A stretch of DNA of 64,000 nucleotides from Candidatus Nomurabacteria bacterium (GTDB lineage Bacteria > Patescibacteriota > Minisyncoccia > Phycocordibacterales > UBA9973): NCBI GenBank assembly GCA_016699085.1, contig CP064958.1, positions 475,181-539,180 on the forward strand, in the 5' to 3' direction. The first letter of the stretch is position 1. Each line of letters starts with the position of its first letter. The position numbers and the translations under genes were made by a program. The notes under the pieces are model-generated. The model was not told the DNA's origin. It saw nothing but the letters and a program-made list of their open reading frames with translations, and made no database searches. This document shows, one piece after another, positions 15,695 through 48,322 of the stretch.

Positions 15695-16318
15695 ATGGGA
15701 AAACCAGTTATATTTCTTGATTTTGATGGATTCAAATTCGATACATTAGATGCTCATGTTGAATATCAGAATTACCGGTACGGTATAAATTCTACACGAG
15801 CTGATTATGTCAAAAATCCTTCTCTTGACACAGTTATCAACAAATATTTGTCTCAGGAAAAGCAAGTGACTTCAAGAGATGTGTACGTTGATAGTGTTGA
15901 GAATTTCCTAACATCACTCGACTGGCACAAGAATGTCAAGCCTGTCGATGGAATGTGTGAAGTGATGTCAAAACTTACTCTGAAATACAAACTTGTTACG
16001 GTCACTGCTCGAGAGAAAAATGGGCTAGCAGTTATACAGCACTTTCTCGACACATATATTCCAAACTGTGTGAGTGAGATTCATTGTGTTTGGGAACACG
16101 CTGGAAATGGAATTTTTAATGCACATTCAAAAAGAGATTTTATTAAAAATTACTCTGGCAAGAAAGTCGCTTTCTTGGATGATTCTGATTATGAAATCTT
16201 AGAGTTACAAGATATTATTTTGTCGTACCTTTTTGATCCATTGGGTACACACGACGATAATAAAAAGATATTGCATCGAGTAAGAAGTTGGGAAGAGATC
16301 GGAAAATTGTTCCTTTGA
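15695..16318 (+). CDS. HAD-like 5'(3')-deoxyribonucleotidase (NT5C-like)
   Basis: VIFLDFDGFKFD (DxDGxxxD) at the N-terminus. Size 207 aa. Confidence 0.4.
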   Translation: MGKPVIFLDFDGFKFDTLDAHVEYQNYRYGINSTRADYVKNPSLDTVINKYLSQEKQVTSRDVYVDSVENFLTSLDWHKNVKPVDGMCEVMSKLTLKYKLVTVTAREKNGLAVIQHFLDTYIPNCVSEIHCVWEHAGNGIFNAHSKRDFIKNYSGKKVAFLDDSDYEILELQDIILSYLFDPLGTHDDNKKILHRVRSWEEIGKLFL

Positions 16319-33748: not shown

Positions 33749-33964
33749 ATCTCCACTCTTCAGTAAGAAGGGTATCTAACAGATTATGCCTATGAAAAAC
33801 TAAACTTTTTATTTTGTAAACAAGTAAAGTTCATATATGCGCCTGTTAGACGCTTTTTTCTTTGAAAATTTAAACATCAATGTAATGTGAATTAAAGTCA
33901 GTAAGTAAAGTAATCTGAGTCAAGAAAATGTATTTTTTCTTTTGTTTCGTTCTATTTTTTAAGT

Positions 33965-35608
33965 AGAGTTTGATCCTAGCTCAGGATGAACGCTGGCGGC
34001 GTGGATAAGGCATGCAAGTCGAACGAATTTTAATTGTTGAAGTTGAAATGAAGTAGCAATATGGAATTTTGATAGATATTTTTAAAATTAGTGGCGAACG
34101 AGGTAGTAACACGTGGGTACTTCCCCCTAAGTCGCGAATAATCCATCGAAAGGTGGACTAATACGCGATATACTTCAGAGTGAAAGATTTTTCGCTTAGG
34201 GAAAGGCCTGCGGGATATCAGCTAGTTGGTAGTGTAATAGACTACCAAGGCTATGACGTCTAGGGGAGCTGAGAGGCTGACCCCCACCGATGGGACTGAG
34301 ACACGGCCCATACACCTACGGGTGGCTGCAGTCAAGAACCTTCCACAATGGACGAAAGTCTGATGGAGCGACGCCGCGTGATTGATGAAGTCCTTCGGGA
34401 CGTAAAGATCTTTTATGAGGGAAGAAGTTTATTGACGGTACCTCATGAATAAGGGGCTCCTAATCTCGTGCCAGCAGGAGCGGTAATACGAGAGCCCCGA
34501 GCGTTATCCGGAATTATTGGGCGTAAAGGGTGCGTCGGTTGTTATATTAGCCTCACTTTAAATCTTCATGCTCAACATGAAGCATGGGCGGGGAACGGTA
34601 TGACTAGAGGTTGTGAGAGGTGTGCGGAACTCAAGGTGTAGGGGTGAAATCCGTTGATATCTTGGGGAACACCAAATGCGAAGGCAGCACACTGGCACAT
34701 ATCTGACACTCAAGCACGAAAGCGTGGGTAGCGAATGGGATTAGATACCCCAGTAGTCCACGCCCTAAACGATGATCTCTCGGTTTTCGGAGTATCGACC
34801 CTCTGAGAGCCTAAGCTAACGCGTTAAGAGATCCGCCTGGGAAATACGGCCGCAAGGCTAAAACTCAAAGGAATAGACGGGGACTCGCACAAGCAGTGGA
34901 TTATGTGGTTTAATTCGATGGTAAACGAAGAACCTCACCAGGGTTTGACACCTACGTGAAAGCTCTAAGAAACTAGAGCCCTCGCAAGACTAGTAGGCAG
35001 GTGTTGCATGGCCGTCGTCAGTTCGTGGTTTGAATTGTTCCCTTAAGTGGGGTAACGAACGCAACCCTCGTCGTGTGTTATATTTGTCACACGAGACCGC
35101 CCAGAACAAAGCGCGTGAATGCGCTTCTAGTAGAAAGTGTAAAGTTGAAAGTCAAAAGTGAATTCAGAAATGCATTTACTTTAAACTTTCTACATTCAAC
35201 TTTTGACTTGAAGTGTACATCGTACGTTTCGTTCTGGGAGGAAGGAGAGGATGACGCCAGGTCAGCATGACCCTTTGATATCCTGGGCTACACACATAAT
35301 ACAATGACGGCTACAACGCGTTGCGACGAGGTAACTCTGAGCTAATCGTTATAAAAGCCGCCTCAGTTCGGATTGAGGTCTGCAACTCGACCTCATGAAG
35401 TTGGAATTGCTAGTAATCGCAGGTCAGACATACTGCGGTGAATACGTTCTCGAGTCTTGTACTCACCGCCCGTCAAGTCAAGGGAGCTGGGAATACCCGA
35501 AATTTCTACATTAGTAGGACCTAAGGTAAGCTCAGTGACAGGGACTAAGTCGTAACAAGGCACGGGTAGCGGAAGCTGCTCGTGGAATAATTCAATTTGA
35601 AACCTTTC
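33965..35608 (+). rRNA. 16S ribosomal RNA with lineage-specific insertions (expanded V1 and a roughly 120-nt insert in the helix-40 loop). The 3' tail is atypical and lacks CCUCC.
   Basis: AGAGTTTGATCCTAGCTCAGGATGAACGCTGGCGGCGTG at the 5' end. Universal blocks GTGCCAGCAGGAGCGGTAATAC, GGATTAGATACCC, GCATGGCCGTCGTCAGTTCGTG, TACACACATAATACAATG, GTCGTAACAAGG. The 3' boundary is approximate. Confidence 0.9.
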
Positions 35609-36656: not shown

Positions 36657-36665
36657 TTATCCACA
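36657..36665 (+). promoter_or_regulatory. Perfect DnaA box (TTATCCACA) about 70 nt upstream of nrdJ
   Basis: Exact 9-mer match to the consensus DnaA box. Confidence 0.4.
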
Positions 36666-36735: not shown

Positions 36736-39057
36736 ATGGGCAATAAAAAACGACGCATTTCAATACCTTCTGCTGATTTCAAGAAAATCAAAGAGATCCG
36801 TAACCGTGAGCATGATGTTATACCATTTGATATAGCTAAAATCCAGGAAGCGCTCCTCAAAGCGTTTACAGTCACCGGTGAGGGAACTGCGTCTGATGCT
36901 GAGTATATTGCTAGACTTGTCTTCAAAGAACTTCTTGCTCTTCGAAAAGCTTCAAAAGATAAACATTTTGTCCCAACTGTTGAACTCATCCAAGACCTTG
37001 TTGAAGGAGAGCTTATCCGTGAGCAATTTGTTCATACTGCTAAAGCCTATATTCTCTACCGCAATAAACGTGCAGTTCTTCGTCGTGAAGTTGGTCCTGT
37101 CCCTGAGAAAGTAAAACAGCTAACCGAAGAATCTAAGAAATACTTTAGAAATCCGCTTGCCGAATTCGTCTATTATCGATCATATGCGAAGTGGATTGAG
37201 GCCGAAGGCCGTCGTGAGACTTGGATTGAGACCGTTGATCGCTATATGAATTTTATGCGCGAACACATAGGCACCAAGCTTAAAGAATCTGAATACAATG
37301 AAGTCCGAGAAGCAATTTTGAGCCATGATGCGATGCCATCAATGCGCCTCATGCAATTTGCTGATCATGCAGCGAGAAAGACTAATGTCTGCGCTTACAA
37401 CTGTTCATATATTGCGCCGACATGTTTCCAAGACTTTGGTGAAATTATTTATATATCTATGTGTGGCACTGGTGTTGGATTTTCTGTTGAAAGTAAAAAT
37501 ATTCAAGCGTTACCGCAAATCAAACCCCAATCTGGCAAAAAGCCAAGTAAGTATGTTGTTCCTGATAGTAAAGAAGGCTGGGCAGATGCATTTGTGCTTG
37601 GTATGAAGACGTGGTTTGGTGGGGAAGACGTTGAATTTGATTTCTCATTGCTTCGTGGTGCAGGTGCACGACTTCGCACGATGGGTGGCAAGAGTTCTGG
37701 TCCAAAGCCACTCCAAGACCTGTTGCAGTTTACTCGTGAACGTATTCTTCGTCGCCAAGGACGTCATCTGACGAACCTCGATGCTCACGATATTATTTGT
37801 AAGATTGGTGAGTGTGTCGTTGCTGGGGGCGTACGCCGAAGTGCGCTCATCTCGCTCTCTGATCTCGATGATGAAGCGATTCGTGATGCCAAGAAAGGCC
37901 AGTTCTATATCAATGAGCCACAACGCATGCTTGCGAACAATTCTGCCGTCTACGAATCAAAGCCTACAGCAGTCGAATTCATGGATGAATGGATTGCCCT
38001 TATGAAAAGTGGCTCTGGCGAGCGAGGATTGTTTAACCGCGGAGCATTACCAAAGCAGATACCTGAACGTCGCATTAAATTCTGGAAAAAGTCTGGCTAC
38101 ATCAATGCTGATGGACGTGTTGTTGGACTCGTGGGAACCAACCCATGTGGAGAAATTATTTTGAAATCAAAACAGTTTTGTAATCTATCAGAAGTTGTTT
38201 GCCGGGCGGAAGATACAGAAGAATCTCTCATGAGAAAAGTCCGTGTGGCAACAATTTTAGGTACCTACCAATCAACACTTACGTATTTCCCATACCTATC
38301 CAAAGAGTGGAAGAAAAATTGTGAAGATGAAAGACTCTTAGGGGTGTCACTCACAGGTCAATGGGATTCAAAATTTGCTCGTGATCCAAAAATACTTGAA
38401 AAGCTCAAAGCTGAAAGTGTGAAGATCAATAAATTATTTGCTAAACGTTTCGACGTCAATGAATCAACCTGCATTACCTGCGTGAAGCCTTCTGGTACGG
38501 TGTCCCAGGTCGTTGACTGCGCTTCAGGTATGCATCCACGTCATAGCCCATACTACATCCGCCGAGTTCGCATATCTGCAACCGATGCACTTTTCCAAAT
38601 GTTGAAAGACCAAGGTGTGCCATATTATCCAGAAGTGGGACAGAGTGTTGAAAATGCGACGACCTATGTTCTCGAATTCCCTGTAAAAGCTCCAGAAGGT
38701 GCAATTTGTAAAGACGATATCACCGCGCTCGATCAGCTCGCGCATTGGAAAGTTATCAAGGAGCACTTTACTGAGCACAATCCATCAGTGACGATCTCAG
38801 TCGGCGAAGACGAGTGGATCGCTGTTGCACATTGGCTCTATGGCAACTGGGATATGTTAGGAGGGCTTTCATTCTTGCCTCGCTCAAACCACGTTTACCA
38901 GCTCGCCCCTTATGAACCAATTAGCAAAGAGAAATACGAAGAACTTAAGCATACCGTTGAAAACATTGATTTCTCAAAAATTGTTACCTACGAACTCGAT
39001 GATGAGACTGAGGTGAAGAAAGAACTTGCTTGTGTCTCTGGGGTTTGTGAAGTGTAA
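36736..39057 (+). CDS. nrdJ: Class II (adenosylcobalamin-dependent) ribonucleotide reductase with an N-terminal ATP-cone
   Basis: ATP-cone in the first roughly 90 aa. Catalytic core collinear with NrdJ. C-terminal redox Cys pair CVSGVCEV. Confidence 0.9.
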   Translation: MGNKKRRISIPSADFKKIKEIRNREHDVIPFDIAKIQEALLKAFTVTGEGTASDAEYIARLVFKELLALRKASKDKHFVPTVELIQDLVEGELIREQFVHTAKAYILYRNKRAVLRREVGPVPEKVKQLTEESKKYFRNPLAEFVYYRSYAKWIEAEGRRETWIETVDRYMNFMREHIGTKLKESEYNEVREAILSHDAMPSMRLMQFADHAARKTNVCAYNCSYIAPTCFQDFGEIIYISMCGTGVGFSVESKNIQALPQIKPQSGKKPSKYVVPDSKEGWADAFVLGMKTWFGGEDVEFDFSLLRGAGARLRTMGGKSSGPKPLQDLLQFTRERILRRQGRHLTNLDAHDIICKIGECVVAGGVRRSALISLSDLDDEAIRDAKKGQFYINEPQRMLANNSAVYESKPTAVEFMDEWIALMKSGSGERGLFNRGALPKQIPERRIKFWKKSGYINADGRVVGLVGTNPCGEIILKSKQFCNLSEVVCRAEDTEESLMRKVRVATILGTYQSTLTYFPYLSKEWKKNCEDERLLGVSLTGQWDSKFARDPKILEKLKAESVKINKLFAKRFDVNESTCITCVKPSGTVSQVVDCASGMHPRHSPYYIRRVRISATDALFQMLKDQGVPYYPEVGQSVENATTYVLEFPVKAPEGAICKDDITALDQLAHWKVIKEHFTEHNPSVTISVGEDEWIAVAHWLYGNWDMLGGLSFLPRSNHVYQLAPYEPISKEKYEELKHTVENIDFSKIVTYELDDETEVKKELACVSGVCEV

Positions 39058-40634: not shown

Positions 40635-40880
40635 ATGTATTATGTTTACATATTAAAAGGCCCCAAGCAGTTGTATATAGGATCAACCAATGATTTAAAG
40701 CGACGATTTACTGAGCATCAGAATAATGAATCGTTAGCTACAAGAAATCGAGGTCCTTGGACAATTGTGTATTACGAAGCTTCTCGATCTAAAACTGATG
40801 CTTTAATAAGAGAGAAGTATTTAAAAACTGCTTGGGGCCGAAGGTATGTTAAAGGTCGTTTAAAGAACGATAAAGTGTAG
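40635..40880 (+). CDS. GIY-YIG nuclease-domain protein (small, stand-alone)
   Basis: YYVYILKG...LYIGSTNDLKRRFTEHQ is the GIY-YIG signature with the Arg and Glu spacing. Confidence 0.75.
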   Translation: MYYVYILKGPKQLYIGSTNDLKRRFTEHQNNESLATRNRGPWTIVYYEASRSKTDALIREKYLKTAWGRRYVKGRLKNDKV

Positions 40881-41420: not shown

Positions 41421-41501
41421 TGTTATACTTATACTATGTTTATCAACAATTCTCCCTGGCTCAAACAGCTCGCTCGAACTCGACCAGTTGCGAAAGGAAA
41501 A

Positions 41502-42806
41502 ATGACTGAACAAACTGATATTGCAATTATTGGAGGAGGAATTGCTGGAGTTACTACTGCTTACTTCACGCTGCTCTTTACAGATAAAAAGGTGACTCTT
41601 ATTGAAGCAGATAAAATTGCCCATGGGGCAACAGGGCATAATGCCGGCCAGGTAACTAGTTATTTCGAGGCGCCTTTCCAGGACTTTGTAAAAAAATACG
41701 GACTTGAATTAGCTGCTCATGCACAGCGTGCCATTGAGTTTGATGCTAGAATTTTGCTCAATGAGATTATCCGCGATGCACAATTACTTACACCAAAGTC
41801 AGAATTTGAAGGATATAACGGTCTCGAAACTAAAGAACAAATTCTCATCTCGCTCGAAGATCTTTTTCAAAGAGGTGAAGCAGTAATTGCAACTCGCGCT
41901 CTCTTGATTTCAAAAGAGTGGCACGAGCATATCCACTTACCAGAAAAATATAAACCGTACTACAGTATTGTCGATAAAGAAAATATACTCTCGTTACTTG
42001 AGACAATTGATGATCGTTATATTGCCTGTTTACCTTTTCTTTCAGGATGCATGAATAGTGCGCTTTTTACTGAAGAGTTGGTAGGTTTTCTCATGAGTAC
42101 ATACAAAGAACGTTTTACCTTACTTGAAGAAACTTTGGTAGAGGATTGCATACTCTCTCAAAACGAGGCGCGACTTAAAAGTGGAACCAATGAAATACAT
42201 GCTTCACGAGTAGTGCTATGTACTAATGGTTTTGAAAAAATTACGCTTAAAAATCAATCTGGTTCTGACATTGATACTAAATTTCATCATAGTGTCACTG
42301 GACTTATAGGTTACATGGCAGGATTCTTAGATGTTCCTGACCAGAAACCTGCTGCGAGTATTTATTCAAAGACTGATTCTGATACTGGGGAAGCATATTA
42401 TTATGCGACAAGACGTCCCTATGAGCATTTGGGTGGTAAGTATAATATTCTTTCGGTAGGCGGTCCTGAAGAAATGGTTGAAGATACACGAACCTATGAT
42501 CCAAAAATGCCATATCCAGAAAAGCATCTTGAGTTCATATTTAGTTTTATAAAAAAAACATTTAGTAGAACATACGAACGAAGTGCGTTTTATTTTGCAT
42601 GGCATGGCCTTATGGGATATACGCCCAACGGTGTACGACTTATTGGCAGTGAGCCATGTAACCCTATTTTAATGTACAACTTAGGTTGTAATGGTGTAGG
42701 AATACTCCCATCTATTTATGGGGGTCATAGAATTGCGCGGATTTTGCGTGGTGATACTATCGAACCATCTATTTTTGACCCCCAGGATCAACGATGTCCC
42801 ACCTAG
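41502..42806 (+). CDS. FAD-dependent oxidoreductase (DAO family)
   Basis: DIAIIGGGIAGVTTAYF dinucleotide-binding motif. About 435 aa. The start is placed at MTEQTD, clear of rnpB. Confidence 0.75.
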   Translation: MTEQTDIAIIGGGIAGVTTAYFTLLFTDKKVTLIEADKIAHGATGHNAGQVTSYFEAPFQDFVKKYGLELAAHAQRAIEFDARILLNEIIRDAQLLTPKSEFEGYNGLETKEQILISLEDLFQRGEAVIATRALLISKEWHEHIHLPEKYKPYYSIVDKENILSLLETIDDRYIACLPFLSGCMNSALFTEELVGFLMSTYKERFTLLEETLVEDCILSQNEARLKSGTNEIHASRVVLCTNGFEKITLKNQSGSDIDTKFHHSVTGLIGYMAGFLDVPDQKPAASIYSKTDSDTGEAYYYATRRPYEHLGGKYNILSVGGPEEMVEDTRTYDPKMPYPEKHLEFIFSFIKKTFSRTYERSAFYFAWHGLMGYTPNGVRLIGSEPCNPILMYNLGCNGVGILPSIYGGHRIARILRGDTIEPSIFDPQDQRCPT

Positions 42807-42915
42807 TTGACTTTTTTAACATAGTTTGCTATACTATCCCTGTGAGTGAATAGCTCCGTCTCAATTTTTAGAGACACAAGTGCATCACAAATCCGCCTTC
42901 GGGCGGATTTTGTGT
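42807..42915 (+). ncRNA. Candidate small RNA 1, comprising a consensus promoter, a roughly 75-nt transcript and an intrinsic terminator
   Basis: TTGACT at 42807..42812, 17-nt spacer, TATACT at 42830..42835. Internal hairpin gtctc/gagac. Terminator atccgcc-ttcg-ggcggat followed by a U-tract. No ORF. Confidence 0.4.
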
Positions 42916-42956
42916 TGCTAAACATGCATATTTTGTCATTTTACCTATGGCTAGTA

Positions 42957-43125
42957 TTTGCTATTACTTCAGAATACAGTATACTTTTTATGCAGTCGTT
43001 GTCTGTGTTTACAGCGAGCGGCTGCACTCACATATGCACTTGTGTTGGAGTTAGCACCCGCTCGCTCTAAGCACAGAAAATAAAACACCCCGCACGTGCG
43101 GGGTGTTTTATTTTCTGTTACGTAC
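42957..43125 (+). ncRNA. Candidate small RNA 2, comprising a promoter-like TTGCTA-16-TATACT, a roughly 135-nt structured transcript and a terminator
   Basis: Long imperfect hairpin acagcgagcgg...ccgctcgct. Terminator aaaacaccccgcacgtgcggggtgtttt. No ORF of plausible length. Confidence 0.35.
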
Positions 43126-43248
43126 AGATATTAATGTGCTACATTTTTTTTAAAATAAAGAAATTCTAAAAAAATAATTTTATTTTTTTAGATACATTTT
43201 ACTTTTTAAATTAAAACAATTATTTTTTTATTTTTATTTACAAAAAAG

Positions 43249-43257
43249 TTATCCACA
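43249..43257 (+). promoter_or_regulatory. Perfect DnaA box (TTATCCACA) within a more than 80 percent AT tract (43130..43345). A weaker TTATTTACA lies 6 nt upstream.
   Basis: Exact 9-mer. The surrounding 200 nt are extremely AT-rich. Confidence 0.35.
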
Positions 43258-43395
43258 TATTTGCATGAAAAAATATTGTCAGGAAATTTATTCTGTACGA
43301 TAATAGTAGTAGTAATGCATGGTTGATACAACAAATATTTTTTTGTTGTGGTCGCAATCATCGCAGAAAACTTTACAAGCTTAATTCCACAACTA

Positions 43396-43467
43396 TGGCA
43401 ACAAAAAAGAAAGCAAAGAAAGCAGCACCAAAGAAAAAGGCTGCAGCTAAAAAGAAGAAGAAATAGT
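43396..43467 (+). CDS. Micro-ORF encoding a 23-aa Lys/Ala-rich peptide (MATKKKAKKAAPKKKAAAKKKKK), followed by a terminator at 43488..43518
   Basis: ATG-initiated ORF ending in TAG. A hairpin cccct-atcc-agggg with a U-tract lies downstream. Confidence 0.25.
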
Positions 43468-43557
43468 TTTCTTCAAAGTTACAAAACAAAAATCCCCCTA
43501 TCCAGGGGTTTTTGTTTTGTAATGCTAAATTGCTACTTTTGTGCTATATTCTAAGCC

Positions 43558-46080
43558 ATGACATTCATAAAATCATTATTTGGTAACGCCGATAGCAGAT
43601 TTTCCAAAAGCGTTGCGCCGACACTCACAAAAATAAATGCTCTAGAAAAAGATATACAGAGCCTCTCTGATGCGGATTTCCCACGCAAGACCAATGAGTT
43701 CAAGGAACGTATTCAAAATGGCGAGACATTAGATCATGTGTTGCCTGAGGCGTTCGCCTTAGTACGTGAAGCTGCGAAGCGTTCGCTTGGTCAGCGACAC
43801 TACGATGTGCAGCTCGAAGGTGGCATTGCGCTTCACCAAGGCAAAATTGCCGAAATGAAAACTGGTGAAGGTAAAACACTTGTTGCAACACTTGCAACCT
43901 ATTTAAATGCCCTCGAAGGTCGCGGTGTGCACGTCGTCACTGTCAATGACTATCTCGCGCGCCGTGATGCACAGTGGATGGGGCAGATATATTCTTTTTT
44001 AGGCATGTCAGTTGGTATTATCAATAGCCAACAAGTATCATATCTCTACGACAGTACTCATACCGCAGATGACAAAGAGCATGATGAGACGAGCTCTTTT
44101 AAGGTCATGTATGAATTCCTAAAGCCAGCACCGCGCAAGGCTGCATACCTCGCTGATATTACGTATGGCACGAACAATGAGTTTGGATTTGATTATCTGC
44201 GCGACAATTTGGTTGTTTCTAAAGATCAGCTCACCCAGCGTGAACATTATTACGCAATAGTTGATGAAATCGATTCGATTTTGATTGATGAGGCACGAAC
44301 GCCGCTTATTATTTCTGCTCCTTCAGGAGATTCTGAAAAGCTCTATAGTACATTTGCCGATATTGCAACCAAGCTCTCCGTTGGAGAAGATTACACGGTT
44401 GATGAGAAGCACCATTCGATTGCACTAACTGATGCTGGTATTACGAAAGCAGAAAAATTGCTCGGCATAGATAATATTTATACAGAAAAAGGCATTAAAT
44501 ATGTCCATCACCTTGAGACTGCTGTTCGTGCGCGGGCATTGTATATCAAAGACAAGGAATATGTTGTCAAAGATGGTGAAGTTATTATCGTCGATCAATT
44601 TACTGGGCGATTGCAACCTGGGCGTAGGTATAGTGAAGGCATCCACCAAGCTGTGGAAGCTAAAGAGGGGGTTACGATCCAGCAAGAAACCAAAGCAGCT
44701 GCATCTATAACCTACCAAAATTACTTCCGTCTGTATAAAAAATTATCAGGCATGACTGGTACGGCTAAAACTTCAAGTGAAGAATTCTTCAAGGTGTACG
44801 GTCTTGAAGTCATGACTATTCCGACTCATCGGCCGAACAAGCGTATCGATACGCCGGACTTGGTGTATCAAAGTGAAATCGGTAAGTGGCAAGCAATTGC
44901 TAAAAAAGTTAAAGAGCTTAACAAAAAAGGGCAGCCAGTACTTATTGGTACGATTTCAATCGAGAAAAATGAAATGCTTTCAGCATATCTTGCCAAAGAA
45001 GGTGTGCCGCATACCATACTTAATGCCAAAAACCACGAACGTGAAGGTGAAATCATTTCTCAAGCAGGACGCAAAGGCTCTGTGGTGATCGCTACCAACA
45101 TGGCTGGTCGTGGGGTTGATATTGCACTCGGTGGTAAGCCTTCAACACCAGAAGAAAATGAAGAAGTAAAAAATCTCGGTGGACTTTTTGTCTTGGGTAC
45201 GGAACGTCATGAAGCTCGCCGTATTGATAATCAGCTGCGTGGCCGTTCAGGTCGTCAAGGTGACCCAGGTGAAACTGTTTTCTTTGTATCGCTCGAAGAT
45301 GATCTCATGCGAGTATTTGGCGCAGATAATATCAAGCGCATGATGGGCAAATTTGGTATTCCTGAAGACCAGCCAATACAAAATAAACTCATTTCTCGCG
45401 CACTTGAAAGCGCGCAGGCTAAGATCGAAGGATTTCACTTTGATGCCCGCAAGTATACGCTCGAATATGACAACGTTATGAACCATCAGCGTCATGTGAT
45501 TTATGATCGTCGCCGGGTATTACTGGTTGGTACTTTAGAAGAAATTAAAACCTATATTGATGGATTTATAGCTCAACACGTAGAGCTTGCGGCATTGGCC
45601 GAAGAGAAAAAAGTATTACTCTCTGAAGAGACGTATTATGAAACACTTCGCCGGATTATTCTCTATGTTACTGATGCGCTCTGGTCAGAGCATTTGGAAA
45701 CTATGGAATATACTCGCTCATCGGTAAATTTGCGTGCATATGGTCAGCGTGAACCGCTCATTGAGTATAAAAAAGAAGGCTTGAGGCTTTTCAAGGAACT
45801 CGAACAATCATTACTCGAGCAAGTTTATGAACTAACTAAAACGATTGATACTGGGACAACTGTTGCTCCAGAGAATCCTACACCAGCACCGCAATTTACT
45901 GTTACAAGCAATCCCGCACAAAATCTTGAGCCGCAAAATGTAGCGAGTAATGTTTCAGAAGGTGGATCAAAAATTGGCCGCAATGATTCTTGTCCATGCG
46001 GTAGTGGTAAAAAATGGAAAAAATGTGGCATGCTCAACACTACTGAGCATCAAAAATTACTGGCAGAAAAAAGTAAGTAA
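43558..46080 (+). CDS. secA: Preprotein translocase ATPase SecA with a C-terminal zinc-binding tail
   Basis: Canonical SecA motifs (MKTGEGKT, DEVDSILIDEARTPLIIS) and C-terminal CPCGSGKKWKKCG. Confidence 0.97.
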   Translation: MTFIKSLFGNADSRFSKSVAPTLTKINALEKDIQSLSDADFPRKTNEFKERIQNGETLDHVLPEAFALVREAAKRSLGQRHYDVQLEGGIALHQGKIAEMKTGEGKTLVATLATYLNALEGRGVHVVTVNDYLARRDAQWMGQIYSFLGMSVGIINSQQVSYLYDSTHTADDKEHDETSSFKVMYEFLKPAPRKAAYLADITYGTNNEFGFDYLRDNLVVSKDQLTQREHYYAIVDEIDSILIDEARTPLIISAPSGDSEKLYSTFADIATKLSVGEDYTVDEKHHSIALTDAGITKAEKLLGIDNIYTEKGIKYVHHLETAVRARALYIKDKEYVVKDGEVIIVDQFTGRLQPGRRYSEGIHQAVEAKEGVTIQQETKAAASITYQNYFRLYKKLSGMTGTAKTSSEEFFKVYGLEVMTIPTHRPNKRIDTPDLVYQSEIGKWQAIAKKVKELNKKGQPVLIGTISIEKNEMLSAYLAKEGVPHTILNAKNHEREGEIISQAGRKGSVVIATNMAGRGVDIALGGKPSTPEENEEVKNLGGLFVLGTERHEARRIDNQLRGRSGRQGDPGETVFFVSLEDDLMRVFGADNIKRMMGKFGIPEDQPIQNKLISRALESAQAKIEGFHFDARKYTLEYDNVMNHQRHVIYDRRRVLLVGTLEEIKTYIDGFIAQHVELAALAEEKKVLLSEETYYETLRRIILYVTDALWSEHLETMEYTRSSVNLRAYGQREPLIEYKKEGLRLFKELEQSLLEQVYELTKTIDTGTTVAPENPTPAPQFTVTSNPAQNLEPQNVASNVSEGGSKIGRNDSCPCGSGKKWKKCGMLNTTEHQKLLAEKSK

Positions 46081-46138: not shown

Positions 46139-48322
46139 TTATTGTTTTTCAATCTTGCATTCTTTCGTTTTTGTTTTAATTATATACAGCCCGTTTGGCT
46201 GATTTGATAAATCGATATCTCCAGCATAAATTCCTTTCATTAGGAGTTTATTATTGGCTGAGTAGACTCGTATTTCCTCCTCTGCATTTCCTGTCACATT
46301 AATTCTCCCGGTGGTTGGATTTGGATACGCATGCAGTTGATTGTCTCCTTCTTCCAGATCAATAGTCCCGACTCTTGGTGTATTTACCACCAAAGAACAA
46401 GGCAATATCGTCTCAACAGCTAGATCATTGGCAGCAATTTTTGCAGCCGACAAACGATCTCTGTAAGACTGAATGGTTGAACTGAACGCAGGATTATTTA
46501 TCTGATTGGTCAGTTCTAACGGATCATTGACCAAATCGAAAAATTCTTCTGTCGTACTACTACAGCCCGAATACAAGTATTTATACTGCAAATCCCATAG
46601 TCCATGAATGTAAGGTAGATCCTGGTACTGATTCTCCGTTGTGTAGAACGAATGGTAATAAATTTCATTCACCGTAGCAGTATGATTTGCTAGATTTCTC
46701 AGTGAATATCCATCCATACCAAACGTATTCGGTATACCAACAGCATCGAGAATTGTTGTTGGGATATCGATATTTCTTACCAAATCTGTAACGATTGTCC
46801 CAGGTGCAAACCAAGCAGGGTAGCGTACAAACAATGGCAGTTTTACCGATGGCTCATAAGCGATACGCTTCATATTGTAGTGATGCTCACCATACATGTA
46901 GCCATTATCTGAGCTGAAAATGATTATAGTATTGTCGAGTTTGCCTGTAGCGGTAAGCTCATCTAGTATCCTGCCAATATTGTAATCAAGTTCGGCGATC
47001 ACAGCATAGGTATCGTAGTACTGCTCCTGTAGTTCACTTCCCACAGCATAGTTTTTGCCTGGTGGCAAAAGGTATGACCAAGACGCGTAATTTTGCGTAT
47101 ACTTTGCCGTGTCCGGCTTTAATTGCAATGGGAAACTGCGGTATATATCGTATATCGATGTATAGGCAAAAGGGGTATGGGGTGCCTTGTAGGGAAGGTA
47201 TAGATAGAATTGACTGTTCACGTTATGGATGCGATCAATCGCGGCGTCGGTTATGAAATTACTGCTCAGTCCTGTCACTTTTATGCTTGGTCCATCTGAA
47301 TTAATATTCACATTCTTCTTTGTGGCTTCGTCGTTCGACAACACTTCATACCAATAGTCCCAATCTCCGTCTGCATACGCCTGAATTTCGTGGTTTTTCC
47401 CGATCAATCCTGTGTAAATTCCACTTTCACGAAGGATTTTGGGCACTCTTGGTAGGGTTTTATCAAACTGAGCTTGTTTTGAGTTATCAGTGACATGATG
47501 AACGTTCGCACGCCGTCCTGTTAACAAGGTTGCTCGCGTGGGAGCACATAGCGAATATTGGCTATAGCAGTTAGTAAATTTCGCTCCCTCATTTGCTATT
47601 CGATCAATATTGGGAGTTTGAAAGAAGGATGCAGCACCATTACAACTGAACCAATCATACCTGGAATCATCCAAAAGGATAAATATAACGTTTGGATGGG
47701 GAATGCCACCAGTGGTGGTAAATGTAGTAATCGATGTCCAATTAGCTTCAATAGCTGTATCACAGCTATTTATTCTGACCTGGTACATCGTGCCTACTAC
47801 TAATCCTGTTAGGTTTATGCTTGTGCCTCCAGATAGTATGGTCCATGGAGTTGTTCCAATTGGTCTATATTCCACAAATGCATTTGGGTTACATGCAGCT
47901 GACCATGCAACTGTTGCAGACGTGTTGGTAATATTACTTACCTGCACATTTGAAGGCAGACTGCAGGCAAGCGTTGTGGTATTCTTGCCGTTTTGTGTAG
48001 CCCCAGGGGTACTGTCGGCGCAAAATCCTTGCAATTTGAACGCATACTGGGTGTCTCCGATAAGTCCTGTCACTATATACGTGGTTACATTACCTACGTT
48101 TACAATTGTCCAATTTCCATTGGGATTAATTTTTCGATAACTTAATTCATAATAAGTGGCATTTGCCACCGTGTTCCAGTTAACCGTAACTGAACATTCA
48201 GTTACATTGGTCAGTGTTTTAACTGCAACGGGTCCTGGCGGTGTGCATACTGCCATTGAAAAGTTAAAGGGGATAGTGACTGAAATCACTATCGCCAAGA
48301 AGAAGGTGAGGATCTTTTTCAT
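46139..48322 (-). CDS. Secreted sulfatase (formylglycine-dependent) with two N-terminal FN3-like domains and a C-terminal T9SS type-A (Por) sorting domain
   Basis: Signal peptide. Sulfatase signature CAPTRATLLTGRR (C-x-P-x-R) after FILLDDSRYDWF. C-terminus AYPNPTTGRINV...NGLYIIKTKTKECKIEKQ matches the T9SS CTD pattern. Confidence 0.8.
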   Translation of the reverse strand: MKKILTFFLAIVISVTIPFNFSMAVCTPPGPVAVKTLTNVTECSVTVNWNTVANATYYELSYRKINPNGNWTIVNVGNVTTYIVTGLIGDTQYAFKLQGFCADSTPGATQNGKNTTTLACSLPSNVQVSNITNTSATVAWSAACNPNAFVEYRPIGTTPWTILSGGTSINLTGLVVGTMYQVRINSCDTAIEANWTSITTFTTTGGIPHPNVIFILLDDSRYDWFSCNGAASFFQTPNIDRIANEGAKFTNCYSQYSLCAPTRATLLTGRRANVHHVTDNSKQAQFDKTLPRVPKILRESGIYTGLIGKNHEIQAYADGDWDYWYEVLSNDEATKKNVNINSDGPSIKVTGLSSNFITDAAIDRIHNVNSQFYLYLPYKAPHTPFAYTSIYDIYRSFPLQLKPDTAKYTQNYASWSYLLPPGKNYAVGSELQEQYYDTYAVIAELDYNIGRILDELTATGKLDNTIIIFSSDNGYMYGEHHYNMKRIAYEPSVKLPLFVRYPAWFAPGTIVTDLVRNIDIPTTILDAVGIPNTFGMDGYSLRNLANHTATVNEIYYHSFYTTENQYQDLPYIHGLWDLQYKYLYSGCSSTTEEFFDLVNDPLELTNQINNPAFSSTIQSYRDRLSAAKIAANDLAVETILPCSLVVNTPRVGTIDLEEGDNQLHAYPNPTTGRINVTGNAEEEIRVYSANNKLLMKGIYAGDIDLSNQPNGLYIIKTKTKECKIEKQ

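Follow-up and report, generated by a model that had tools for sequence, protein, structure and literature searches.

Comparative evidence for co-evolution of two small RNAs, complementary at a hairpin tip, upstream of secA in Patescibacteria

In the U4/U6 small nuclear RNAs (snRNAs) of the eukaryotic spliceosome the conserved functional hairpin of one RNA is kept unwound by two helices that flank a stem-loop of its partner. The RNA of the signal recognition particle (SRP) is characterized by a GNAR tetraloop together with conserved loop motifs in domain IV. In bacteria, pairing between two regulatory RNAs is known from sponge or anti-small-RNA systems such as AgvB-GcvB and SroC-GcvB, in which one RNA pairs with the active region of another (bioRxiv 10.1101/2021.04.25.441314; PMC4474525); the known sponges usually pair with a single-stranded seed, often derive from messenger RNAs (mRNAs), transfer RNA (tRNA) spacers or prophages, and are Hfq-dependent. 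The raiA motif RNA is independently transcribed, its function is unassigned, and its gene typically lies upstream of raiA/hpf with secA as a common neighbour (PMC10861870). Here we describe a 64-kb stretch of bacterial DNA (the window, to which all positions refer unless a locus is named) in which the 750 nt directly upstream of secA (42807-43557) hold two predicted small RNA (sRNA) genes, termed candidate 1 and candidate 2. The two RNAs are complementary at the tip of the candidate 2 hairpin, and comparison across genomes indicates that they have co-evolved there. We regard them as two new RNA families, and in its proposed mechanism the pair resembles sponge/anti-sRNA systems.

Candidate 2 is predicted to fold into a long imperfect hairpin with a conserved tip (5'-ACUC/ACAUA-loop-UGUGU/(UG)/GAGU-3'), in which we distinguish a 5' strand (A), a loop (L) and a 3' strand (B). 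Candidate 1 carries a separate complement to each of these, denoted A', L' and B' (Table 1), and the corresponding duplexes in the window are 8 bp (A':A), 12 bp (L':L) and 7 bp (B':B) long. When the two window RNAs are cofolded with nested pairs only, 11.9 kcal/mol is gained over the separate monomers. Across homologs the conserved sequence of candidate 1 consists almost entirely of three short single-stranded segments: a 5' GUGAGU(G) that complements the 5' strand of the candidate 2 tip, an element (U)UCCAAC/AGCUCC that complements its 3' strand, and the 9-12 nt before the terminator, which complement its loop. The GUGAGU core of A' is found in most candidate 1 homologs, and in many of them the best duplex of the 5' part is formed by (A)GUUCCAACG with UGUUGGAGUU. 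In most relatives B' reads UUCCAAC, against GUUGGA(G), the 3' strand of the tip being (GU)UGGAG(UUA). In the window clade candidate 1 has an internal hairpin between B' and L', whereas in other clades B' and L' are contiguous.

The loop sequence of candidate 2 differs by lineage and L' of candidate 1 tracks it across 13 loop classes; examples (loop of candidate 2 with L' of candidate 1) are UAGGCAAUUG with CAAUUGCCUA, AUGCAAUUG with CAAUUGCAU, AGGCAUUUG with CAAAUGCCU, AGUCAUUUG with CAAAUGACU, UGACAUUUG with CAAAUGUCA and UUGUUUUGUUGGA with UCCAACAAAACAA. Over the 13 classes the energies of the cognate loop duplexes sum to -147 kcal/mol, compared with -76 +/- 9 kcal/mol for permuted partners (0 of 100,000 permutations did as well), and the cognate L' ranks first in 10 classes and second in the other three. 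As MAFFT shifted the registers, pairs were counted in a same-register subset instead of over all loop classes; there both sides change in 4 of the 12 intermolecular pairs, with a score of 0.256 vs 0.091 +/- 0.019 (0 of 500 shuffles), the segments of this subset having been picked by best fit, so that the permutation test is the unbiased control. At A':A a compensatory change occurs in locus L007, where candidate 2 has AGCACUCACU and candidate 1 has AGUGAGUGCU, and in L005 the pairing is kept via two G-U wobbles. The two genes are convergent on opposite strands in L007 and L021, and both loci keep A':A complementarity at the RNA level (10 bp and 9 bp); the complementarity is therefore neither a DNA-level inverted repeat nor the product of a single read-through transcript, and points to pairing between RNAs. 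Among nine genomes found independently of the tip motif, the constraint lies on candidate 2, whose CUCAC...UGGAG is invariant, whereas A' of candidate 1 varies (GUGAGU, GUGGAU, GUGGGU).

Table 1. Features of the region upstream of secA and of related loci. RNA ends, promoters and folds are predictions.
Feature	Position	Strand	Details
DAO-family FAD oxidoreductase gene	41436-42806		directly before the 42807-43557 region
Candidate 1 promoter	42807..42835	+	-35 TTGACT (42807-42812), 17-nt spacer, extended -10 TGcTATACT (42827-42835)
Candidate 1 RNA	42841..42916	+	~75 nt, terminator-ended
Site A' of candidate 1	42841..42848	+	UGUGAGUG, at predicted 5' end; reverse complement of candidate 2 CACUCACA (43025-43032)
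Site B' of candidate 1	42851..42857	+	UAGCUCC, complement of GGAGUUA in the 3' strand of the candidate 2 tip
Candidate 1 internal hairpin	42858-42862 / 42871-42875	+	gtctc/gagac
Site L' of candidate 1	42874..42885	+	ACACAAGUGCAU, perfect 12-nt complement of candidate 2 loop AUGCACUUGUGU (43034-43045)
Candidate 1 terminator	42891-42908	+	ATCCGCC-TTCG-GGCGGAT, then U-tract TTTTGTGTT
Candidate 2 promoter	42958..42985	+	TTGCTA-16-TATACT
Candidate 2 RNA	42992..43118	+	~125 nt; 5' tail, hairpin 43002-43077, palindromic terminator 43078-43113
Candidate 2 conserved tip	43024..43053	+	A = GCACUCACAUA (43024-43034), L = AUGCACUUGUGU (43034-43045), B = GGAGUUA (43047-43053)
DnaA-box consensus, perfect	43249..43257	+	TTATCCACA; upstream of small-ORF promoter, preceded by AT-rich stretch 43130-43248
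Small-ORF promoter	43276..43304	+	TTGTCA-17-GATAAT
Small-ORF leader	43316..43365	+	structured (leader from ~43311); GGUCG 43350-43354, 45 nt before ATG
Small ORF	43395..43466	+	MATKKKAKKAAPKKKAAAKKKKK, 23 aa, lysine-rich, conserved
Small-ORF terminator	43478..43523	+	just before secA; MFE -30.2, z -6.5
secA	43558-46080		directly after the 750-nt region
RNase P RNA beside candidate 1	L001:1064-1438; L115:5803-6188; L131:7770-8131; L205:7868-8183		in relatives
L002-type loci checked for tRNA-Pro	L002:5310-5381; L107, L110, L121, L123, L141, L143, L185

The SecA of the window is closest to those of Patescibacteria/Paceibacterota genomes (62-67% identity), which places the genome in the Candidate Phyla Radiation (CPR), Patescibacteria. 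Identical contigs occur in JGI 3300056831, SRR11674009 and SRR11674012; they show zero variation across the region and add nothing to the comparison. An original prediction for this DNA had proposed two small transcription units, each with its own promoter and terminator, in 750 nt of non-coding sequence. For candidate 1 the proposed TTGACT-17-TATACT promoter, gtctc/gagac hairpin, terminator, U-tract and length of ~75 nt all agree with what was found here. For candidate 2 the promoter motif stands, displaced one base to the right (42958-42985 in place of 42957-42984); the long imperfect hairpin and the terminator are both present, and the unit holds as a predicted hairpin RNA, of ~125 nt and not ~135 nt. 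In agreement with the original prediction, neither unit contains a conserved open reading frame (ORF). The description as non-coding is right for the first two-thirds of the region and wrong for the last third, where a conserved 23-codon ORF has its own promoter and terminator. This third transcription unit with its tiny conserved protein went unnoticed, as did the mutual complementarity and co-evolution of the two RNAs and the affiliation of the organism with Patescibacteria.

The predicted fold of candidate 2 is very stable, with a minimum free energy (MFE) of -68.2 kcal/mol and z = -9.8 (0 of 200 shuffles fold as well); the hairpin RNA is ~95 nt long. By BLAST, L001 has a homolog that is 79.5% identical over 132 nt (E = 6e-23); with respect to secA it is encoded on the other strand, and it has a -10 box at the matching position. 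Motif and covariance-model searches find candidate 2 in eight of 80 reference-genome loci fetched through SecA, only ~20 of these 80 being Patescibacteria-like. The eight (L001, L002, L003, L005, L007, L015, L021 and L026) belong to Paceibacterota, Sungiibacteriota and unclassified Patescibacteria, with SecA proteins 53-67% identical to that of the window. At least 120 metagenome contigs match the exact pattern GCACTCACATA-N4-9-TNTGTTGGAG, which specifies 20 bases; all but two of the matches listed share the hairpin, and these two (L114 and L129) were set aside as chance. In the homologs a -10 box lies ~7-17 nt before the hairpin base. The covariance model R1 scores 85.5 bits on the plus strand of candidate 2 and 27.1 bits on the minus strand. 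In an alignment of 45 sequences, for which RNAalifold predicts 26 pairs, 93.4% of cells are paired vs 71.3% in shuffles, and the covariation score is 0.637, compared with 0.209 +/- 0.012 for shuffles (0 of 500 reach it) and 0.09-0.19 for slid controls. Changes on both sides are seen in all 20 long-stem pairs, whereas the tip pairs never vary. CUCAC and UGGAG are invariant in 9/9 genomes found without using that motif, and the longer GCACUCAC is present in 8/9. By these measures candidate 2 is a conserved structured RNA.

The candidate 2 terminator is a perfect 36-nt palindrome (AAAAUAAAACACCCCGCACGUGCGGGGUGUUUUAUUUU) between A-runs and U-runs, and could on this account stop transcription from either direction. 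The commonest form of candidate 2, the L002 type, is nearly invariant over its whole 90 nt despite heavy synonymous divergence in nearby secA. tRNA-Pro(CGG) is followed by candidate 2 within ~120 nt in six of the eight L002-type loci checked, and lies ~0.4-1.3 kb away in L121 and L141; this tRNA gene often closes a tRNA cluster. Two copies of candidate 2, on the same strand and 2.4 kb apart, are found in L181 (2537-2563 and 4961-4987), the only multi-copy locus seen. L005 has candidate 1 first, then candidate 2, hpf and secA; elsewhere the small ORF and secA are found downstream of candidate 2.

Among the promoter-like sites of the 5.5 kb scanned, that of candidate 1 has the joint best score (10/12) and is alone in having a TG extension. 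The 74-nt fold of candidate 1 has an MFE of -27.3 kcal/mol (z = -4.0). Homologs of candidate 1 stand beside candidate 2 in 37 loci with a common layout of promoter, 5' motif around GUGAGU, variable middle and intrinsic terminator; of the 34 genuine loci outside the L002 type, 31 have candidate 1 beside candidate 2, and it was further seen in L005, L007, L015, L021, L026 and L120. In 29 of 36 loci a near-consensus TTGACa-17-TGnTATAcT promoter precedes A', the conserved 5' motif, by 3-10 nt; ~0.05 per locus is expected by chance. Usually candidate 1 lies 135-216 nt upstream of candidate 2 on the same strand; the genes are 470-1,140 nt apart in L165, L203 and L209, and the whole tandem block is inverted relative to secA in L001. 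Apart from the segments that pair, neither the sequence nor the shape of candidate 1 is conserved: the middle hairpin is optional and its own structure beyond the terminator varies among homologs. In many relatives the RNase P RNA gene is divergently adjacent to candidate 1, with 16S ribosomal RNA (rRNA) within a few kb, forming a stable-RNA cluster; RNase P RNA was not found in the 64 kb of the window. A DnaA box lies upstream of the candidate 1 promoter in L026 (4575).

Both genes combine a sigma-70-type promoter at a conserved distance with an intrinsic terminator, two features expected of an sRNA gene, and the pair shows the covarying intermolecular complementarity expected of an sRNA with its anti-sRNA. 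The homologs either carry a terminator hairpin of their own or end with the main hairpin and a U-run behind it. That they are two separate small transcription units, as first proposed, is borne out in that they behave as independent, conserved sRNA genes. Neither matches a described family. Scanning the whole window with Rfam 15 at gathering thresholds returned 16S rRNA and one tRNA only, neither unit reaching the gathering score of any family, and in a permissive scan of 42500-43800 (E <= 10) the best match, owed to the terminator, was Leu_leader, whose 33.2 bits fall short of the threshold of 50. No SRP, 6S, transfer-messenger RNA (tmRNA) or raiA model matches either unit at gathering score or at E <= 10, in agreement with the earlier judgement on the first three, and Rfam scans of eleven related loci gave 16S, RNase P and tRNA only.

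In our favoured explanation candidates 1 and 2, as separately transcribed sRNAs, act as a base-pairing pair, which the comparative data make a little better than an even bet, and candidate 1 is a dedicated antagonist or gate (anti-sRNA) that opens the tip hairpin of candidate 2; to the latter we assign a rough probability of 0.55. The long stem of candidate 2 would be kept as structure only and the tip, 5'-GCACUCAC...loop...UGGAG-3', as sequence, and for this reason the tip is probably the working part, a putative binding site for a protein or another RNA. With a separate complement in candidate 1 for each strand of the tip and for its loop, complete pairing would have to open the hairpin; candidate 1 would unzip the tip, with both strands and the loop held in three intermolecular helices. 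The role of antagonist or gate is given to candidate 1 because candidate 2 has an invariant tip and is far more widespread, while candidate 1 conserves little beyond its pairing segments. The comparisons show conservation, the structure of candidate 2 and co-evolving complementarity; pairing in cells, regulation of candidate 2 by candidate 1 rather than the reverse, and the role of candidate 2 are what we infer. Several points weigh against this explanation. The whole case is built on sequence. Candidate 1 is absent beside candidate 2 in 87 of 88 L002-type loci, within the few kb examined (L120 is the sole exception), and was not seen near candidate 2 in L116, L147 and L166; it may be clade-specific or encoded elsewhere in the L002-type genomes, and may not be essential to the function of candidate 2. 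No single nested structure accommodates all three helices. In the metagenome matches an invariant tip was required by the search pattern, so that the nine genomes alone test it independently. Finally, no target or protein partner of the tip was found, the ideas of secA codons and of the small-ORF leader having failed.

The tight, conserved adjacency of the two genes is also what would be expected of an obligate two-piece RNA, in which candidates 1 and 2 join via the three helices and the multi-helix junction is itself functional, for example as a ribonucleoprotein scaffold. The frequent position of the pair in a stable-RNA cluster, divergent from RNase P RNA and a few kb from 16S rRNA, the strong, constitutive-looking promoters of both genes and the extensive, covarying complementarity are in keeping with such an RNA. 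It is nevertheless unlikely, though the strongest of the alternatives: candidate 1 is missing near candidate 2 in the L002-type and other loci just listed, it conserves neither sequence nor shape beyond the segments that pair, and candidate 2 on its own is a very stable, covarying hairpin. The direction of control could also be reversed, with candidate 1 a seed-type sRNA acting on mRNAs through its 5' UGUGAGUG and candidate 2 a decoy or sponge that titrates it. A 5'-end seed followed by a terminator is the classic layout of a trans-acting sRNA, and there is ample precedent for the sequestration of sRNAs by sponge RNAs (bioRxiv 10.1101/2021.04.25.441314; PMC4474525). However, it is the motif of candidate 2 that is invariant and the seed of candidate 1 that drifts (GUGAGU, GUGAAU, GUGGAU, GUGGGU), candidate 2 occurs far more widely and shows conservation from end to end, and no mRNA 5' region in the window contains CACUCACA, the other two copies lying inside the coding sequences of ribonucleotide reductase and secA. 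We therefore rank this reversal as doubtful, behind the two-piece RNA, which in turn stands behind the antagonist or gate.

Two further alternatives would remove the need for pairing between separate RNAs. Since most loci have the genes in tandem on one strand, with 135-216 nt between them, they could be read through into one precursor whose complementary segments form alternative intramolecular folds. Each unit has its own conserved promoter and strong terminator, however, the genes are 470-1,140 nt apart in L165, L203 and L209, and the convergent genes of L007 and L021 retain complementarity at the RNA level, which makes a common precursor improbable. Least probable of all, and strongly disfavoured, is that the elements are not functional RNAs but strong bidirectional terminators with chance promoter hexamers, or DNA-level repeats. 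The palindromic terminator of candidate 2 fits this, and so does the count of promoter-like hexamers, which in this AT-rich DNA is not above chance (19 found vs 14.7 +/- 4.0 expected from shuffles); for this reason the case for the two genes rests on comparative evidence and not on the promoters of the window. Against it, the stem of candidate 2 covaries with a preference for the RNA strand, the element is conserved across genomes whose SecA proteins are only 53-67% identical while flanking genes and orientation vary by locus, and the intermolecular covariation in convergent loci has no DNA-level explanation.

Candidate targets and origins were considered and rejected. The loop of candidate 2 complements the RAYG codons of the VNLRAYGQREP motif of secA in the window and some relatives, but in 56 loci these codons differ freely at synonymous sites and the loop does not change, so the match is due to chance. 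The small-ORF mRNA was dismissed since its L001-clade leader start, UGUGAGUGUGAU, belongs to a hairpin within the leader, takes other forms in relatives (AUGAGUAUGAU, ACGAGUGUGAU) and does not occur in the window; the small-ORF leader has no robust complementarity to candidate 2. UGUGAGUGUGAU stands at the start of the small-ORF mRNA in the L001 clade (L001:1773, L115, L167, L205, L217) and contains an 8-mer of candidate 1 A', a link of which to candidate 2 is doubtful. The other copy of TGTGAGTG in the window, at 16069, falls within an ORF of 207 aa, away from any transcript 5' end. For a phage or mobile origin, the phage collection searched gave no match, and a looser motif scan of viral contigs gave chance matches that read as coding sequence. 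A type I toxin-antitoxin system is not indicated, as the one small ORF that is conserved encodes an extremely basic, hydrophilic peptide (MATKKKAKK...) and not a hydrophobic toxin.

Compared with the described systems, the antagonist or gate resembles the sponge/anti-sRNA pairs in that one RNA would pair with the active region of another; unlike the known sponges, candidate 1 has a dedicated gene that co-evolves with its target, uses three segments to reach both strands and the loop, and is found in Patescibacteria. In the window clade B' and L' flank the internal hairpin of candidate 1, as in U4/U6, from which the pair differs by the lack of homology, the domain of life and the third helix, A':A, at the 5' end of candidate 1. 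Candidate 2 is like the small (4.5S-type) SRP RNA in being a hairpin of ~100 nt with a sequence-conserved tip and a covarying stem, located in a housekeeping-RNA cluster and near secA, and unlike it in that the tip lacks the GNAR tetraloop and the domain IV loop motifs. With the much larger raiA RNA (roughly 200 nt) candidate 2 shares only the genomic niche upstream of hpf/secA, being a single ~95-nt hairpin with no raiA match at E <= 10. The secondary structure of raiA RNA is more elaborate, and its distribution is in Bacillota and Actinomycetota (PMC10861870). A bolder proposal, which we regard as tentative and clearly less probable than the antagonist or gate itself, is that candidate 2 is a previously unrecognised housekeeping-class RNA of Patescibacteria with a standing like that of 6S, SRP or raiA RNA, an RNA whose invariant hairpin binds a core cellular component and whose activity is gated by the unzipping candidate 1; this would be a bacterial counterpart of U4/U6 and the first RNA-RNA regulatory module described in CPR.

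Literature searches returned nothing relevant on these sequences, and no described sRNA of the Patescibacteria (CPR), a group that makes up a large share of bacterial diversity and has tiny genomes and symbiotic lifestyles. Candidate 2, whose commonest form is conserved near base for base in many environmental lineages and whose neighbours include rRNA, tRNA and RNase P genes, may have a CPR-specific core function, and its co-evolving partner gives a testable handle, since the predicted helices can be mutated and restored. The pair is also a clean natural case of intermolecular RNA covariation, which is rarely so clear for two bacterial sRNAs. By-products of the analysis are a widespread gene for a lysine-rich protein of 16-64 aa upstream of secA and a promoter that is likely controlled by DnaA.

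This gene is the third unit of the region. Homologous ORFs of 16-64 aa (MAAKKKAKK...KKRA) occur in 82 other loci. Of 83 small ORFs listed, 72 are directly upstream of secA, 81 have GGTCG 33-89 nt upstream and 71 have a DnaA-like box 126-233 nt upstream, one of the 83 (minus strand, window 4106) being unrelated to this locus and having none of the three features. The GATAAT box of the promoter is conserved in L001, L002 and L003. A public gene caller predicts the small ORF as a 47-aa gene; it has no match in Pfam or NCBIfam, and the peptide could be nucleic-acid-binding or ribosome-associated. The DnaA box upstream of the promoter is one of only two perfect TTATCCACA boxes in the 64 kb, the other (36657-36665) being ~70 nt upstream of a ribonucleotide reductase gene (36736-39057). 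Both are in promoter regions, which suggests that DnaA may control transcription there. An origin of replication (oriC) was rejected: there is a single perfect box at 43249, and the cumulative GC skew rises steadily with no turning point.

Elsewhere in the window the 16S rRNA gene (33958-35597) is 1,640 nt long with insertions; the window has neither a 23S nor a 5S gene after it. At its 3' end GGAAUAAUUCAAUU takes the place of the expected GGAUCACCUCCUU, so that the gene appears to lack the canonical CCUCC anti-Shine-Dalgarno sequence; recognisable Shine-Dalgarno sequences are likewise absent from secA and the small ORF. An 81-aa ORF with a GIY-YIG nuclease domain (40635-40880), which may be the remnant of a homing endonuclease, lies among small ORFs without family match between the ribonucleotide reductase and oxidoreductase genes. 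A 727-aa sulfatase-family protein (46139-48322, minus strand) carries fibronectin type III domains and a C-terminal Por_Secre_tail, a type IX secretion sorting domain that is usually tied to Bacteroidota and seems unexpected in a Patescibacterium.

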